In this document: piece by piece, positions 1-11,426 of the stretch | Numbering within the stretch: the first letter of the stretch is position 1 | Layout of the letters: every line of letters begins with the position of its first letter | Assembly (NCBI GenBank): GCA_031372065.1 | Contig: JANMKN010000346.1 | Coordinates: forward strand, 1-13,175 | DNA length: 13,175 nt | Direction: 5' to 3' | Source of the DNA: Abditibacteriaceae bacterium | Lineage (GTDB): Bacteria; Armatimonadota; Abditibacteriia; Abditibacteriales; Abditibacteriaceae | The notes under the pieces: generated by a model | Seen by the model: the letters and a program-made list of their open reading frames with translations, nothing else | Database searches by the model: none | Told to the model about the DNA's origin: nothing | Position numbers and translations under genes: made by a program

Positions 1-1129
1 CTCGTTCGGGAGGTTCAACAGGCCAAGTTTGTGCGTTGGAGTCAGAGTTTTTAGACGCATTTTTGCGGGGCGGGCGCAGTAACATCCAAAAACGTTTGGT
101 ATCCAAAGCCGCAGCATTTGCGGCCACGACGAGTAGGCAAATATGAGCCATTTGGGCGATTTGGCGCCGCGCTAAAACATACGAAACAATGGCGAACAAC
201 AGCCAAAACAAATGCGCCACTCGCTTATGTGGGCTATTTATCCAAGCATTAATGGAAAGCAGAGCCATTAAACATGGAATCAGAATCGCATCAGGCGACA
301 TAGCCGGATATTTAAAGATATTTTGCCATTCGTTGATGTAAGTAAATTTTTTGCTGCGCACTTCACTTAGCGAGGCCCAATAATGCACGCCATATGGATT
401 GATGTTAATCGCCAAAGCGCAAAGCAATAAAATTCCGCAGAGTAACAGCGTGGGGCGCAGCGAACGTTTTTCTTTCCAATCTTGAATGCCCTCGCCCGCA
501 ATTGTCAAACCAATAAAAACCAGTCCTGTCGCCACGCCGCCATGAAAATTTGCCCAAATCACGAACAGTAAAATCACGCCTGAAATACGCAGTAATAAAC
601 GATCTGGTAAACCGTTTGGAGAAGCCTCCGATATATCGCGTCGCTCTGTCCAAACTAATAAAAACGTCATTAAAATCAGCAAAAACAGGCTGCTGAATAA
701 TTCAGGACGTGGGTGGATGCGCGGCGAAAAACACCACAACATAATGACAAACAAAAACGGCGTCAGCACTGTTATGCGCGAACGCCGCGCCCATGCCAGC
801 CATAGCCAAATCAAAATAGTGAGCGCTACGAAAAAAGTAATAAACAACGCGCGCATAGCGCCCGTTTGGAGATCAACGCCATCAAGACATTTGAAGAAAA
901 GCAGTTGACTGAGCCACGAATGGTAAATCCACGGCACCGGCGTGCCCGGCCCCCAAAGAAACAAAGTTTCGTGAGGCACACGCCCATTTTGCACTATCCA
1001 GCGCCCGATAGCGGCGTGTGCCCAGAAATCATCTATGCCACGCAACAATTGCCACGAAAACGCAAAGCACAACACCATCAAAATCGGCAAATATAATTTG
1101 GTGATAAACGCAATTAAGCGTGAGTCCAT
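1..1129 (-). CDS. Multi-pass membrane protein, putative GT-C-fold glycosyltransferase; 3' end truncated by window edge; paralog of 1140-2879
   Basis: Not in ORF track. Manual translation from ATG at 1129 is open for 376 codons to the edge: MDSRLIAFITKLYLPILMVLCFAFSWQLLRGIDDFWAHAAIGRWIVQNGRVPHETLF...WIYHSWLSQ...RPELFS...IWANFHGG...INPYG...INEWQ. It has many hydrophobic segments and the same motif order as the upstream gene, and starts 10 nt after that gene's stop. The glycosyltransferase function is inferred. Confidence 0.85.
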   Translation of the reverse strand, partial: MDSRLIAFITKLYLPILMVLCFAFSWQLLRGIDDFWAHAAIGRWIVQNGRVPHETLFLWGPGTPVPWIYHSWLSQLLFFKCLDGVDLQTGAMRALFITFFVALTILIWLWLAWARRSRITVLTPFLFVIMLWCFSPRIHPRPELFSSLFLLILMTFLLVWTERRDISEASPNGLPDRLLLRISGVILLFVIWANFHGGVATGLVFIGLTIAGEGIQDWKEKRSLRPTLLLCGILLLCALAININPYGVHYWASLSEVRSKKFTYINEWQNIFKYPAMSPDAILIPCLMALLSINAWINSPHKRVAHLFWLLFAIVSYVLARRQIAQMAHICLLVVAANAAALDTKRFWMLLRPPRKNASKNSDSNAQTWPVEPPER

Positions 1130-1139
1130 GCGCTGAAAT

Positions 1140-2879
1140 TTAAGACTGCTCATGGCGAAACAAAAGGGCTGGGCCGCTTTTGAATGAATATTTTTTCCAA
1201 CCGGGCGTGCGCGAAAGTTCATCCACTAACGGCTTTTGCAATTCGGGATTAAGCAACGCATCAGTATAGCCTTCGCGTGTGAGAACCTCTCCAGCATTAT
1301 GCGGTTTGGTTTGAAATTTCAAATAATCGTCCCAATATTTGTCAGGATACAATTCGATGCGCGGATCGGCGCTCGGCAAAGTTTCCGGATACAAGGCCCA
1401 CATTAAATAAGAGCCAAATACCATTTCGTTATACAATCGCCCGCGCGGCGGACTTTTTCGCAGAAACTCGGCAGCTTCAACCGGCGTTGTTTTTTCCAGC
1501 ATGAGCGGCGGGTCGCCCGAAAAGCCAACCGGAAAATTGCCTTTTGGATTAGGTGCAAAACGCGCTTGATAGGCCGGTGGCAGTGGCAATTGCGGTTTCA
1601 TCCACGGTAAAACCGGCACAATTAGCAACAACAGCATAACCGCCATCACTGCGTTTACAATATAAATCGCGCGTGTTGATTCTGGTGTGGTTTTTTGCGC
1701 TGTTATCTTTAATTTTGCCGCGCCCATAGCCGCCTGCAACGCGCCGCTGAACGCAGGCGCAAATAACAGGGCGAACCAGACAATCGCACGCACATTGCGC
1801 AAACCCATCGAGAAAAGCGCCAAAAGCGCCAAAATTTCTCCAGCGCGCACGCCACAAGGTGAACAATGCCATTTATCAGCGCGCGGCGCGCTTTTGAAGA
1901 TCAAAAACACCAGAAAAAGCGGCGCGAGGAAAAACACATCGCTGTTCCATTGATCGAACCTCGGATGCTGCCATTCCTGAATAAACTTTTGCGAGGTGTA
2001 ATTACTCGCCAGACCAAAAGCGTAATTGTAAATACCTGCGCCGCGAGGATTAAGCATTACGGCACAAGAACAAAGAGCAGCCAGCAGCAAAAGTTGCCGC
2101 GTTTTTGGCATTGGCGCGCCGAAAATCGAAACCGACCGCTTATTTTGCAGAATTTCGCCTATAAAAACCATCCATAGCACAATAAGCGCAGTCATAAAAG
2201 CGCCGTGCAAGTTCGACCATAAGGCCAGCATGACGCCCAAAGTTCCTATGAAAAACGGGCGCATCTTCTCGTTGAACGGCCATTCGTAAATAATAAAAGT
2301 GAACGCCCCAAACAACGGAAACGAAAACGTTTGAGGTCGCACATCCATATTTAGCGCCGACATCAAAAACGTCAGTAAGGCGCTCAACGCGGCTATGCGC
2401 GCGGCGTCATTTTCCACTTCTAACAACTGCGCGGGACTTTCCTGCCCGCTTAATTGAGCCTGCGCCACACGGCGCGCGCGACGAAACGCAGCCCACACCA
2501 CCAAAACATAAGCTGCGCCCATACTCGCGCTGCGAAAAATCGCGATCCACGCCAGCCCACCGCGTTCTAAAACCTTGTAAAACGCCCAATGCGCAATCCA
2601 ACCTTGATTAAAATAGGATTTACTGGGCGGCACACTGATGCCGTTCCACCATCCATTGGAGAATAAATTCGTGGTCGGAATGTGGCCTGTAGTTGCTGTA
2701 ATTGAGCCAGCCCGCGCATGATACCAAAAATCGTTGGGAGAAATGGGCAAGCACAGCGAATAAATCACTACGCAGAGCGGCATAAACATCAACCAAAGCA
2801 AGCTGATGCGTCCCCACCACGGAGCGGTGAGAGTGCTAAATGAATTGCGTGAGGAGTCGTCCAGCGACGAAGAACGCAT
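1140..2879 (-). CDS. Multi-pass membrane protein, putative GT-C-fold glycosyltransferase (579 aa)
   Basis: Long ORF with many TM-like segments, an acidic first-loop motif NDFWYH..AG..G.IP, then RPQTFS, LWSNLHGAF, LNPRG, IQEWQ and a soluble C-terminal domain (GRLYNEMVFGSYLMW..DPRIELYP). The GT-C assignment is inferred from topology and the first-loop Asp. Confidence 0.85.
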   Translation of the reverse strand: MRSSSLDDSSRNSFSTLTAPWWGRISLLWLMFMPLCVVIYSLCLPISPNDFWYHARAGSITATTGHIPTTNLFSNGWWNGISVPPSKSYFNQGWIAHWAFYKVLERGGLAWIAIFRSASMGAAYVLVVWAAFRRARRVAQAQLSGQESPAQLLEVENDAARIAALSALLTFLMSALNMDVRPQTFSFPLFGAFTFIIYEWPFNEKMRPFFIGTLGVMLALWSNLHGAFMTALIVLWMVFIGEILQNKRSVSIFGAPMPKTRQLLLLAALCSCAVMLNPRGAGIYNYAFGLASNYTSQKFIQEWQHPRFDQWNSDVFFLAPLFLVFLIFKSAPRADKWHCSPCGVRAGEILALLALFSMGLRNVRAIVWFALLFAPAFSGALQAAMGAAKLKITAQKTTPESTRAIYIVNAVMAVMLLLLIVPVLPWMKPQLPLPPAYQARFAPNPKGNFPVGFSGDPPLMLEKTTPVEAAEFLRKSPPRGRLYNEMVFGSYLMWALYPETLPSADPRIELYPDKYWDDYLKFQTKPHNAGEVLTREGYTDALLNPELQKPLVDELSRTPGWKKYSFKSGPALLFRHEQS

Positions 2880-6594: not shown

Positions 6595-8562
6595 ATGAGC
6601 ACAGCCACCACAATGGAACCGATAGAATCGCAGAAAACTGAAGCCGCTGAAGAACTCAGCGAGTTCGACTTCGACGTTCAAGAAGTTGAACAAGAAGACC
6701 CCGGCACGCGCATCGCGCGCTTGTTTTTGGAAGATTACGTTGTCACTTCGCTGCTGCGCCACGGACGCGCCCTGCGTCCCAGCGAAATCATTTCCGGACA
6801 GCCGGGTTTTTCGCTGTCACGCGCCGGATTAAAGGCCGGCTTGCACGACAGCAAGCGCGTTGTTCACACCGAGCGCGAGTGGGAATGGACTCTGCGCCTC
6901 GAACGTGCGGCTTGGACACGCGAAGAGAAAAATCGCCAACCGCTCGCCAGCGCGCTGGAAGATTTGCTGATCGCTATTGGCAAGCCAGTCAACACGCAAA
7001 TTATCGTGCGCGAAATGTCCGAAATGCGCTCGATGTTGACAGCTAACATCAAAGTGCCCGTCGAAACTTTGCTGCGCGATTCGCGTTTTGCCGTGCGCCT
7101 CAATGAAACAACGTGGCTGCATTCCAATTTCCTGCTTGATCCCGGCGCGCCGACAGCGGCATTGGTGCGCCGCGAAAATAAAATCGAAATCGATCCCGAC
7201 TGGATTGATTTACGCGAAATGCCATTGCCCGAACCCGATGGCACGCTGCGCGAACGCGCCGTCGAACTGCTCGAAACCGTCGGCCAACCGCTCTCGCGCC
7301 GTCTTTTGGGCTATTTATTATGGAATCAAACGCCCGAAAAAGTCACGCGGCAGGATTTGCTTGATTTGATGAGCGAACGCGAGACGTTCACTTCGCTTAT
7401 CGGTGGTTACATCACGCTGAAATCGCAGCTACCCCAGTGGCGCGGCTTGGTCGAAGACTGGCTTAGTGAAATGGGCGCCTCGCTGCCGGAAGTGGACGCC
7501 GTCGCGGTTTTGCGCCAGCGTCTGGCGCCTTCGCAAATTATCGCGCCCAAAGACTCCGATTTGGAATCGGTCAAGAAATTCGCGCGACGCGGCATGGCGC
7601 AAAACGGCATTCAGCCTTTTGAGGTCGCCAATGCCTTGTTGCACGCCTTGGAAATCGAATCCGACGATCCGCAATATGCGGGCACTTTGCAAGGCTTAAA
7701 CGACGCCTTGCGCCGCGACATGACCTATTTGCCGCTCGGCATTGGCCGTTTCATTTTGCGCGAAGCGGTGCCCGCCAATGTAGGACAGGTGCCGGAAACG
7801 CTGCGCCCCATTAGCTTGGAATTGCGCAACCGCGAAACCAACGAGCCGCTGGACATGGAAATGACCGACGAGGGACTTGAAGGAGACGGCGTTGAATTTG
7901 TGCATAGCCCGTTTTGGGAAGATGTCAACGAAGAAATCGAAGTTCGCTCGCCGCAGCGCCCCAAAGAACTCGAAACCAAATTCATTGTTCTCAACCACCA
8001 TTTGCGGGCAGGAACGCTGAAATTGCGCCGCATGGACGATGGTTTCTGGGGCATCGAAGGCAACCTGACGCGTCTGCCCGTTTTCGTCGAAACCGACGGC
8101 AAAGAAGAAAATTTAGCGGCGTGGGCCAGCAAAGAAAGTGGCCTGATTTATGGCCTCGGCGCTTGGTTTCCGACGCGTTTGCCCGCTTCCGGCGGCAATC
8201 TTCTTTTCGAGCGCGGCGCCAACGGCTTCCGTTTGACTATCGGCGAACCGGACAAAGCGACTTTTATCTCGCCAGAGCGCTTGCAGGTCTTGGAAGCCAT
8301 GCGTGATGCCTCGAAATTTCTTTCTTTGTATGAATTGCTACAAAACATCATGGCCGATGCAGGCGATACTGAACTTTCGAGCATTTGGGCGCAAGCCAAT
8401 GTGGTGCGCCGCACCAGCAAACGCTTGCTCGCTTCGGTTTTGTGCGCTTATTCGTGCTTTTACTTCAAAAAACGCGGCCCCGACCAGTTTTTCTGGCACT
8501 TCGCCGCTGACCGCGTAGACCAAGGCTTCAAGCGCAACAAACGCAAATTTGTCAGAAGGTAA
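6595..8562 (+). CDS. Hypothetical protein with repeated winged-helix (HARE-HTH/RNAP-delta-like) units, 655 aa
   Basis: Long ORF with an acidic N-terminus and a basic C-terminus (GFKRNKRKFVRR). A recurring L...LL...G.P(L/V)...L..d.rF...g.(W/F) pattern occurs about five times. The domain call was made by eye. Confidence 0.85.
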   Translation: MSTATTMEPIESQKTEAAEELSEFDFDVQEVEQEDPGTRIARLFLEDYVVTSLLRHGRALRPSEIISGQPGFSLSRAGLKAGLHDSKRVVHTEREWEWTLRLERAAWTREEKNRQPLASALEDLLIAIGKPVNTQIIVREMSEMRSMLTANIKVPVETLLRDSRFAVRLNETTWLHSNFLLDPGAPTAALVRRENKIEIDPDWIDLREMPLPEPDGTLRERAVELLETVGQPLSRRLLGYLLWNQTPEKVTRQDLLDLMSERETFTSLIGGYITLKSQLPQWRGLVEDWLSEMGASLPEVDAVAVLRQRLAPSQIIAPKDSDLESVKKFARRGMAQNGIQPFEVANALLHALEIESDDPQYAGTLQGLNDALRRDMTYLPLGIGRFILREAVPANVGQVPETLRPISLELRNRETNEPLDMEMTDEGLEGDGVEFVHSPFWEDVNEEIEVRSPQRPKELETKFIVLNHHLRAGTLKLRRMDDGFWGIEGNLTRLPVFVETDGKEENLAAWASKESGLIYGLGAWFPTRLPASGGNLLFERGANGFRLTIGEPDKATFISPERLQVLEAMRDASKFLSLYELLQNIMADAGDTELSSIWAQANVVRRTSKRLLASVLCAYSCFYFKKRGPDQFFWHFAADRVDQGFKRNKRKFVRR

Positions 8563-8633
8563 TGGGTTATCGGTGATAGGTTATAGGAGAAACAAAACCC
8601 ATCACTCATCACCAATAACCAATTACCTCTTTT
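8557..8633 (+). repeat. Heptamer-repeat inverted hairpin, probable terminator or mRNA stabiliser
   Basis: Left arm GGTAATG GGTTATC GGTGATA GGTTATA GG (8558-8587), right arm CC CATCACT CATCACC AATAACC AATTACC (8598-8627), then TCTTTT. Overlaps the stop codon at 8560-8562. Confidence 0.8.
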
Positions 8634-9093: not shown

Positions 9094-9747
9094 ATGAACA
9101 ATCCGAATATCATTTCGCTGGAACCACACGGGCCAATTACCGGCGCCAATCCGACATCGGAAAATTTAGAAGACCATGTTGGATTGGCGATGCTGGAAGA
9201 CCTTGTCAATTGGGCGCGCAAAGGCTCGCTGTTTCCGCTGACCTTTGGTTTGGCCTGCTGCGCCATCGAAATGATGGCAACCGTCGGCGCCAAATACGAC
9301 ATTGCGCGTTTTGGCTCCGAAGTGTTTCGCGCTTCGCCGCGCCAAGCTGATGTGATGATCGTCGCGGGCCGCGTTTCGCAAAAAATGGCGCCCGTGTTGC
9401 GTCAGATTTACGACCAAATGGCCGAGCCGAAATGGGTGATTTCGATGGGCGCCTGCGCTTCGTGTGGCGGCGTTTTCAATAACTACGCCATTGTGCAGGG
9501 CGTTGACCGCATTGTGCCCGTTGATATTTATGTGCCCGGCTGCCCGCCGCGTCCCGAACAATTAATTTGGGGCATCATGCAATTGCACAAAAAAATCGAG
9601 CGCGAAGGCTTGCGACGCGGCAAAGGCGATAGCATTAACAAACCCACCGCCGTGCGCACACCCGCTATCGAAGACGCGCGCCGCACTTTGGACGCTATCG
9701 TCAAAAGCAATGGTAAACCCGGCGTGCCGGATGTCATTGAGTTGTAA
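9094..9747 (+). CDS. nuoB: NADH-quinone oxidoreductase subunit B
   Basis: [50 protein letters not shown]. Start set at ATG 9094 (GGAG at 9085-9088, 2 nt after the nuoA stop) rather than GTG 9061. Confidence 0.97.
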
Positions 9748-9750
9748 GGT

Positions 9751-9827
9751 AACCCCATCCCCGGCCTCCTGCCCACAAGTGGGCGCCCGCATTGAAACAG
9801 CAAAGGGGAAGGGCCGGGGATGGGGTT
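9751..9827. repeat. REP-like palindromic element
   Basis: Perfect 16-bp inverted repeat AACCCCATCCCCGGCC (9751-9766) / GGCCGGGGATGGGGTT (9812-9827), with an inner palindrome GCCCAC-AA-GTGGGC (9771-9784). Confidence 0.75.
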
Positions 9828-9835
9828 TTATTTCC

Positions 9836-10429: not shown

Positions 10430-10458
10430 TTGTTGTTTTTAACGTTTCTCTGTATGCT
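10430..10458 (+). promoter_or_regulatory. Putative sigma-70 promoter for the speD leader
   Basis: TTGTTG (10430-10435), 17-nt spacer, TATGCT (10453-10458). Predicted start near 10465, where the structured sequence begins. Confidence 0.55.
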
Positions 10459-10464
10459 TTAAAC

Positions 10465-10596
10465 GCTGCCTGACGAAGCCGTTCGCGGCGCGAAAAAATC
10501 AAAGTTCAGACCCCAAATCATGGTCTGTAAAGTCACACTGGGGGCCTAACTCGCAAGAGCGAGGATTAGTCCTGATTCTGGTGTGGCCTTTTTTTT
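10465..10596 (+). ncRNA. Candidate riboswitch/attenuator upstream of speD
   Basis: Three hairpins ending in an 8-T tract (10589-10596), with loop-bulge complementarity AATCA (10516-10520) / TGATT (10573-10577). No named family recognised. Confidence 0.55.
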
Positions 10597-10718
10597 CGCC
10601 CGAAACCGGCACATCGTGCAGCCAAGACGGAACTGCAATGCCCGTTCGCGGTGCGGACAGCGCAGAAAAATCCATAAGAAATAGCCGCGAAAGGAGTGTG
10701 GCCCGGTTAACAAAAAGG

Positions 10719-10783
10719 TGGAATGGCGAATGCGGAGTGCGGAATAAATATTCCGAATTCCAAATTCTGAATTCCAACTTCCA
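10719..10783 (+). repeat. Heptamer-repeat inverted hairpin inside the speD leader
   Basis: TGGAATG GCGAATG CGGAGTG CGGAAT, loop AAAT, then ATTCCGA ATTCCAA ATTCTGA ATTCCAA CTTCCA. Confidence 0.75.
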
Positions 10784-10845
10784 AAGGTCGGGCATAACGG
10801 ACGGCGTGGGGCCAAAACGTCCCCGTCGTAAAAAGGAGAGCGAAA

Positions 10846-11373
10846 ATGCATCTGGTAATTGAGGGACGGGGCGGCGACTGGCACAAACTGCAAGATTTGC
10901 CCGCATTGTATGAGTTGTTGGACACACTGCCGGGGCGGATTAACATGACCAAAATCATGCCGCCGATTGTTACCCGCTACGTCGGCGTGACACCGGAAGA
11001 TTGGGGCATCAGCGGTTTCGTGATGATTGCAGAATCGCACATCTCCGTTCACACGTTTCCCGAAAGTGGCGAAGTTTCGATTGACGTGTTTTCCTGCAAG
11101 GAATTCGACCCAGCCAAAACCTGCGACATCTTGATGGAGCAATTCGGCTTGGCTTCGGTGGAAACTTGCGTGCTGCGTCGCGGTCTGGAATATGGACTCG
11201 AAACCACCATGCTGCCCACGCGCATGGCGAAACAGGTGACGGCTTACACACCAAACGTCACCCGCCCAGACGCCGCATTGGAATTGGCTGGCGTCGGTGC
11301 AGAGGAACTCTCCACCGCACTCAACGGTTATCATCCCAATGGTTACGAAACCAATGGCACGCCGTTGAACTAA
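10846..11373 (+). CDS. speD: Pyruvoyl-dependent S-adenosylmethionine decarboxylase family proenzyme (class 1b SpeD-like); substrate not certain
   Basis: N-terminal HLVIEG, self-cleavage motif GISGFVMIAE|SHISVHTFPE (E63/S64), IDVFSC, LRRG; RBS AAGGAG at 10833-10838; ~60-aa C-terminal extension. Confidence 0.88.
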   Translation: MHLVIEGRGGDWHKLQDLPALYELLDTLPGRINMTKIMPPIVTRYVGVTPEDWGISGFVMIAESHISVHTFPESGEVSIDVFSCKEFDPAKTCDILMEQFGLASVETCVLRRGLEYGLETTMLPTRMAKQVTAYTPNVTRPDAALELAGVGAEELSTALNGYHPNGYETNGTPLN

Positions 11374-11386
11374 AATTCACACCCCC

Positions 11387-11426
11387 AAAAGCCCGCACCT
11401 GTCAAAAGGTGCGGGCTTTTTGTTTT
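11387..11426 (+). terminator. Intrinsic terminator after speD
   Basis: Perfect 14-bp stem AAAAGCCCGCACCT-GTCAAA-AGGTGCGGGCTTTT followed by TGTTTT. Confidence 0.9.

Follow-up and report, generated by a model that had tools for sequence, protein, structure and literature searches.

A conserved two-part RNA leader ahead of a SpeD-family gene in Abditibacteriaceae, a candidate riboswitch

The SpeD-family gene of an Abditibacteriaceae bacterium (assembly GCA_031372065.1, contig JANMKN010000346.1; the window is the whole stretch of 13,175 nucleotides that was analysed) is preceded by an untranslated leader of ~380 nt that includes two conserved, covarying RNA structures, here called elements B and C. 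The leader is a genuine cis-regulatory RNA in two parts, apparently undescribed so far, and can be tested as a candidate riboswitch; as expected of a riboswitch, it has conserved noncoding structure with covariation together with invariant unpaired bases. We would put at about 0.4 the probability that it is a tandem OFF riboswitch that controls a probable arginine decarboxylase and responds to a polyamine of the pathway by binding it directly. No description of the leader was found in the literature, in a search that covered few subscription papers. The features are listed in Table 1.

Table 1. Features of the leader and the transcription unit (positions in the window).
Feature	Position	Strand	Remarks
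Sigma-70-type promoter	10430..10458	+	-35 at 10430-10435, -10 at 10453-10458, 17-nt spacer; aligned promoter columns
Variable 5' segment	10465..10531	+	Contains hairpin 1 (10478-10489) and hairpin 2 (10507-10527); unconserved beyond the genus
Element B outer stem	10532-10541 with 10578-10587	+	Predicted intrinsic-terminator stem, G-U pairs at top
Element B embedded core	10540..10577	+	G-run stem, C/U mismatch, two GA bulges, apical hairpin with replaceable loop
U tract and conserved GCC	10589-10596; 10598-10600	+	GCC in 36/41 leaders
Element C pseudoknot	10640..10691	+	Hairpin P1 10640-10658; its loop 10645-10652 pairs with 10684-10691
AGGAG	10692..10696	+	Directly 3' of the pseudoknot; invariant in 35/35 rows; SD-like
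P3 stem	10701-10706 with 10788-10793 (10701..10793)	+	Invariant stem columns; A-rich internal loop
Variable P4 insert	~10715-10783	+	Heptamer-like repeat hairpin here; length random modulo 3
P5 hairpin	10800..10827	+	Conserved hexaloop 10813-10818
SD of the gene	10833..10838	+	Mostly unpaired in predicted ensembles
SpeD-family pyruvoyl decarboxylase, 175 aa	10846..11373	+	PF02675, E 3e-25
Intrinsic terminator 3' of the gene	11387..11420	+	Closes a monocistronic unit

Promoter, terminator and element B

A SpeD-family protein is present in 26 of the 27 genomes of Abditibacteriaceae, the family to which the named relatives carrying the homolog belong. The 41 leaders compared are 25 from protein-selected loci (this genome included), one from L087 and 15 from metagenome loci, and the set is partly redundant, with two pairs having identical coding sequence. 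Of 32 metagenome pattern matches, 15 were kept (14 with the gene and one cut off ahead of it) and 17 were dropped as chance because they had neither speD nor the other motifs. Since the pattern fixed the 3' strand of P3 and the loop of P5, these columns are biased in the 15 metagenome rows; both motifs are also found in all 25 protein-selected loci. A search at the DNA level gave two conserved blocks, at ~10530-10600 and ~10680-10720.

Hairpins 1-3, the U8 tract (10589-10596) and the promoter, as read off the sequence in an initial annotation, all lie where that annotation placed them. The promoter with its 17-nt spacer is conserved among the leaders: TTG-spacer-TANNNT was found by pattern upstream of element B in 31 of 41, some leaders being truncated. 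It is missing from the list given by the consensus scan. Transcription is predicted to start at ~10465. Promoter-like sites between element B and the SD occur in 2 of 41 leaders, against 13.4 expected, and the gene therefore depends on read-through past element B, in support of the earlier suggestion that transcription has to pass a terminator-like stem between promoter and gene. A 598-nt contig of a relative from an RNA library runs from element B into the gene, a weak hint in the same direction in which a DNA origin is not excluded; the RNA data are two runs with small shares (0.05-0.06), as contigs only and mostly from relatives. No tRNA or tmRNA was found.

Hairpin 3 with its U tract, that is element B, is a genuine structure on which selection acts. 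For the region 10455-10605 the folding z is -2.56, and a fold as good is reached by 3 of 200 shuffles. The median pairwise identity of element B (378 pairs) is 93%; in the gene it is 47% at fourfold-degenerate sites and 95% at second codon positions. In an alignment of 30 rows, from which duplicates and five core-less leaders were left out, 98.8% of 659 cells are paired and 5 of 22 pairs are altered on both sides. The outer stem is paired in 100% of cells over 10 pairs, and the core in 97.6%, with three pairs altered on both sides. None of 500 shuffles paired as highly, in a test that is inflated by kinship among the leaders, and slid controls reached 35-48%. All 41 leaders keep the outer stem and a U tract with 7-8 T among 9 nt, and 36 have an intact core. 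The GCC stands at a fixed distance past the U tract in 36 of 41 leaders, compared with 22 of 314 (7%) ordinary sites with a hairpin and T5 in this genome.

The G-run, C/U mismatch and GA bulges of the core are invariant or nearly so, and the apical loop is replaced or extended by an extra hairpin in L151, L156 and L179. Invariant unpaired bases at the bulges and the mismatch, next to a replaceable apical loop, are what is expected for binding, and for this reason the core may be the sensing pocket. The core is decayed in four leaders (L009, L010, L012 and L170), which group with weak support on the gene tree, and is deleted in L024, which stands apart from them on that tree. L024 keeps a plain terminator with a small loop and has no second promoter, so that read-through does not need the core.

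As to an expression platform, there is a terminator that has to be read through; no conserved alternative fold was seen for either element. Co-transcriptional folds of the 36 leaders share no conserved antiterminator helix, and the full terminator dominates most predicted ensembles. Pairing of the terminator 5' arm with upstream sequence ranges from 0.04 to 0.81 without a shared partner. One candidate for such a partner, an upstream UGAC, was rejected, as it offers just 4 bp and is not common to the leaders.

The segment ahead of element B has a length of ~39-134 nt and cannot be aligned between homologs. Hairpins 1 and 2 are present in this genome as described before; they are not conserved parts of an aptamer. 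The stem of hairpin 1 is confined to this genome and L002, and hairpin 2 to four leaders of this genus among the 36 whose core is intact. The initial annotation had proposed that the loop of hairpin 2 and the bulge of hairpin 3 (AAUCA with UGAUU) form a ligand-binding pseudoknot, with CCCCA/UGGGG as the alternative pairing. In favour of this proposal are the five perfect Watson-Crick pairs in this genome and the retention of hairpin 2 in four genomes of the genus. Against it, the arrangement is absent from 32 of 36 leaders with the same core, the three congeners make 3-4 pairs and the other 35 leaders as a whole 2-4, which is chance level, and five pairs are reached by 10% of shuffled leaders. 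The alternative pairing needs hairpin 2 and is present in three leaders, all of the genus. The bulge of element B measures 3-6 nt, and only U or C stands at its first position, as would be expected if this base pairs with G10542 and is not free in the bulge. As a feature of the family the loop-bulge pseudoknot is contradicted, and we find the proposal as a whole scarcely believable; of the structures expected to be conserved upstream of the homologs, it is hairpin 3 with the U tract that is found throughout, and not hairpins 1 and 2 or their pseudoknot.

Element C

Element C (10640-10838) was overlooked by the earlier description and is present in 41 of 41 leaders. Its P1 hairpin is variable in sequence, and the partner of the P1 loop lies directly 5' of the invariant AGGAG. 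The pseudoknot helix has 5-9 bp in 39 of 39 distinct pairs, and in 30 of these 39 the P1 loop pairs better with its own partner than with the average of the others' (mean -11.7 vs -10.6 kcal/mol). In the commoner type of pseudoknot (28 leaders, 23 distinct pairs) one pair is G-C in 14, A-U in 6 and G-U in 3 with no mismatch, and the terminal pair shows four pair types with 4 mismatches; in four rows of the pseudoknot count the script took the stem copy of the motif instead of the loop. The AGGAG region is complementary over 6-9 nt to the 3' end of the 16S rRNA of this genome in 41 of 41 leaders, and this complementarity is kept through two different flanks, the 5' flank in 28 and the 3' flank in 13. 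No start codon is found at a usable spacing after AGGAG.

P3 is predicted with pairing probabilities of 0.58-1.0 in all 39 leaders folded. The repeat that makes up the P4 insert has many weak copies elsewhere in this and related genomes, and congeners carry different repeat families at the same position. P5 is paired in 94.3% of cells, with 4 of 8 pairs altered on both sides. Most relatives have a further small hairpin, P6 (73.9% paired), whose loop contains the SD; this genus lacks it. Taken together, P5 and P6 are 87.2% paired with 7 of 13 pairs altered on both sides in 35 rows, six near-duplicate or partial leaders being left out; shuffles were as high in 17 of 500 cases for two-sided changes and in 0 of 500 for cells. 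Covariation in the leader as a whole rests on few independent events among relatives.

The inner stem of element B and P5 have in common a G-run stem with a G-U pair, followed by C-x-M-A. This shared motif, a pattern chosen post hoc, turned up in 26 of 200,000 shuffles of the B core and at 37 sites in the genome. An exchange of strands between P3 and P5 was considered as a switch for the SD and rejected as inconsistent among 39 leaders: when forced, it has a median cost of 6.6 kcal/mol, and it closes the SD in 11 of 39 and opens it in 1. As the exchange is costly and the SD is rarely closed by it, no expression platform is shown for element C.

The gene and its probable pathway

The initial annotation took the gene to be a SpeD-family decarboxylase, a reading that we revise in view of the neighbouring genes of its homologs and the pathway profile, both of which point to arginine decarboxylase and not to SAM decarboxylase. 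From this context the SpeD homolog is probably a SpeD-derived arginine decarboxylase (SpeDA) that feeds homospermidine synthesis. It is the only PF02675 gene in the genome (94% complete), and its TIGR03330 score of 68.5 is below the cut-off of 75.65. SpeA and SpeC were not found in this genome, nor were PF01276 and PF04371, and the sole PF02784 gene is LysA. A SpeY-like gene is present in 27 of 27 family genomes, and this genome also has a SpeB-like gene. Canonical spermidine synthase is mostly absent from the family: PF01564 has matches in 6 of 27 family genomes and strong ones in two, each near a second SpeD; the match in this genome is a 775-aa protein that scores far below the NCBIfam cut-offs. 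The second, distant SpeD beside a strong spermidine-synthase match in G008 C14 (L063) and G010 C196 (L064) is probably part of an acquired speD-speE pair.

Among the nearest outside homologs, 52 of 56 loci have a downstream ORF. It belongs to the arginase/SpeB family in 22, to the SpeY family in 7 and to the carbon-nitrogen hydrolases (AguB-like) in 4; none is SpeE, and 19 are other or unnamed proteins. In five Aenigmatarchaeota loci (L107, L122, L127, L128, L129) the SpeD homolog stands directly 5' of arginyl-tRNA synthetase, which hints that this clade acts on arginine.

The proline that follows the catalytic histidine, which we take to be the marker proline of SAM decarboxylases, is retained in the SpeD homolog. 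According to the accessible text of the report on SpeDA this proline is not conserved there (PMC10407285), and the published marker is thus uninformative here and does not favour SpeDA. The same text describes SpeDA arginine decarboxylases that were identified by this gene profile, one of them from Armatimonadota (Li et al. 2023, PMC10407285). In the pathway as outlined in the available part of a later report, SpeY makes G44G out of two agmatines, and a SpeB-like enzyme turns G44G into homospermidine (Li et al. 2026, PMC13625781). The window agrees with that pathway in having a SpeD homolog without canonical SpeE and with SpeY and SpeB in the genome, SpeA and SpeC not being found, and in that the nearest outside homologs sit ahead of speB or speY. 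It differs in that the gene stands alone and has a C-terminal extension and a long structured leader. The extension (~60 residues, 11190-11373) has blocks conserved in the family without a Pfam match and is possibly a regulatory tail. If the enzyme is SpeDA in a homospermidine pathway, then spermidine, SAM, dcSAM and MTA are unlikely ligands.

Distribution, proposed mechanism and alternatives

Elements B and C were found in one copy per genome, in no family but Abditibacteriaceae and ahead of no other gene, with 32 candidates scored per genome. In 151 genomes of the phylum model R1 gave 10 strong matches, all in the family, and 12 weak ones, and model R2 gave 14 strong matches, again all in the family, and 4 weak ones. 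Fourteen of the 16 weak matches were inspected and are plain terminators or coding sequence, none ahead of a polyamine gene; the remaining two are the family's own copy in G009, which is decayed, and the reverse strand of a site already inspected. Neither model found anything significant in 66 other loci, three Firmicutes speD loci among them, or in 30 other speD loci. Three further genomes gave one model match at E 0.04, and viral contigs gave no match to the leader. Metabolite riboswitches usually recur ahead of several genes of a pathway. No such recurrence was seen among the 32 candidates scored per genome, and neither element was found ahead of speY or speB of this genome. The leader of a speD-speY locus in the sister family (L095, ~1315-1490), which was not scored by R1 and R2, folds strongly (z = -4.49) and carries stems that resemble P3, apart from one additional A-U pair, and P5; it is possibly a remote homolog of element C.

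The novelty claimed for the leader holds against Rfam, in which the leader of the window has no match at E up to 5 and 19 family or sister loci have none at E up to 1; nor was one found in 20 outside SpeD loci and 19 other Armatimonadota speD loci. The absence of a SAM-I core, noted before, is likewise upheld: no SAM-family match was obtained at E up to 5 in the window and E up to 1 in the 19 loci. In the accessible literature one validated class of polyamine riboswitch was found, the authors of which expect more; it is a SAM-I variant that senses spermidine upstream of polyamine genes and acts as an OFF switch (Salvail et al. 2023, PMC10853860). Like that RNA, the leader stands ahead of a polyamine biosynthesis gene and has an intrinsic terminator, and OFF by termination is also the logic predicted here. 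Unlike it, the leader has neither a SAM-I fold nor an Rfam match and lacks a separate antiterminator (none that would compete with an aptamer P1 is seen among 36 leaders); it belongs to Abditibacteriaceae and not Firmicutes, its pathway is probably one of homospermidine or agmatine, and it has a second element that would act at the level of translation. A parallel to the build of element B is the HMP-PP riboswitch (thiS motif), described in the available part of its report as a conserved core in an otherwise classic intrinsic terminator, where HMP-PP suppresses termination and turns expression ON (Atilho et al. 2019, PMC6478431). Element B also has its conserved core within a terminator; its sequence and gene are unrelated to thiS, no alternative fold was found and the logic would be OFF.

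From the observed anatomy we infer a ligand, a direction and a switching step. In the absence of the ligand the 36-nt core within the terminator would fold slowly or loosely, and polymerase would often read through. A ligand bound at the core of G-run, G-U pair and GA bulges would stabilise the stem, giving more termination near 10596, and on transcripts that escape, the same ligand would stabilise element C and lower the loading of ribosomes. Candidates for the ligand would be homospermidine, its bis-guanidino precursor and agmatine. As the regulated enzyme would make agmatine for SpeY, the switch would amount to end-product feedback. More doubtful is the wider reading that the leader represents a new architecture, in which one binding motif is used twice, inside a terminator and, behind a pseudoknot, next to the ribosome site, for a ligand that no known RNA senses (homospermidine, bis-guanidino-homospermidine or agmatine), as two-tier feedback on a neofunctionalised arginine decarboxylase. 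The tandem OFF switch is weakened by the lack of an antiterminator and of a consistent SD switch, by loss of the B core in 5 of 41 leaders, and by the restriction to one gene and one family.

The same facts may be read in favour of a protein. A protein that recognises the motif common to the B core and P5 could set termination or read-through at B and block ribosome loading at P5; the RNA would then be a binding site and not a sensor, and the short terminated RNA could titrate the protein. The occurrence of the same stem, G-U pair and C-x-M-A motif twice within 300 nt agrees with this, as do the narrow range, which fits a lineage-specific protein, the failure to find an intrinsic switch in B or C, and L024, which needs some route past its plain terminator. 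We consider such a protein possible, if on the unlikely side, as no regulator gene lies beside speD in the window and most protein sites are simpler than such a pseudoknot, with its many invariant joining bases. Control by CsrA was rejected, CsrA being absent from 27 of 27 genomes (the control matched in 3 of 14). A search for ANTAR proteins gave none in the one genome covered, and its control matched nowhere. In another Armatimonadota family (L050 of G141, ~1501-1620, minus strand) a promoter is followed by a small hairpin whose six-base loop has A as its first and G as its fourth base, by another small hairpin that overlaps the 5' arm of a terminator and then, as judged by eye, a glutamine synthetase III-like gene, an arrangement resembling what we take to be the ANTAR two-hairpin leader.

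Constitutive behaviour of the leader is unlikely. Element B would then be a leaky terminator with a fixed ratio between a small RNA of ~130 nt, acting elsewhere, and the mRNA, and element C a ligand-free structure for translation or stability, such as a standby ribosome site. Such a leader would explain why 5 of 41 have lost the core and kept stem and U tract, why complementarity of the inner AGGAG to the anti-SD is kept over 6-9 nt by way of two flanks, and why the SD is predicted to be open. However, it needs neither invariant bulge bases nor a covarying pseudoknot, the 5' half of the short RNA is unconserved, and the complementarity of the 5' flank is also explained by the pseudoknot. Quite improbable is the derivation of B or C from the ldcC RNA motif, which is, in the accessible text of its report, an orphan bulged hairpin with a possible pseudoknot upstream of arginine, ornithine or SAM decarboxylases, known from Firmicutes and two Spirochaetes and with a proposed role in polyamines (Weinberg et al. 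2017, PMC5737381). The gene context is the same and the description loosely similar, and a bulged hairpin upstream of an Arg/Orn/SAM decarboxylase gene is too general a likeness for membership. B and C are from a different phylum, the named relatives being Abditibacteriaceae, R1 and R2 found nothing in the three Firmicutes speD loci, no examples of ldcC surfaced in seven Firmicutes decarboxylase loci, and Rfam, in which the presence of ldcC is unconfirmed, gave no match in the window or the 19 homologous loci. The pseudoknot of ldcC is invariant and that of element C covaries, a distinction that is drawn from the published description and not from a consensus. A leader peptide (SpeFL-like or MAGDIS-like) that couples translation to termination is barely credible: one frame is open from element B to the gene in this genome, but no conserved uORF was found in the leader, a start with an SD covers any anchor in at most 4 of 41 leaders, and the spacings between anchors are random modulo 3 (17/13/11, 16/9/16, 10/18/12). 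An attenuator of the SpeFL type was rejected in the absence of a conserved uORF with an SD and a fixed frame over the hairpin.

The agmatine/SpeY route to homospermidine was worked out in 2023-2026, and the accessible parts of the pathway papers do not address its regulation. The leaders offer two compact RNAs of ~70 and ~200 nt, the latter of which can be shortened by trimming P4, together with a short list of ligands and natural variants without the core as controls. Should a protein read the leaders, they would be a pointer to an unknown RNA-binding regulator in a barely studied phylum.

Elsewhere in the window, the gene for a 655-aa protein without a Pfam or NCBIfam match (6595-8562) precedes nuoA and nuoB; the other genes of the complex I operon are missing at this site. 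Two neighbouring genes, at 1140-2879 and 2-1222 (minus strand), code for multi-pass membrane proteins that are built alike, and the complete one has no Pfam or NCBIfam match. Long intergenic hairpins at 8554-8631 and 9747-9831, which match microRNA models only below threshold, are probably repeat or terminator hairpins.
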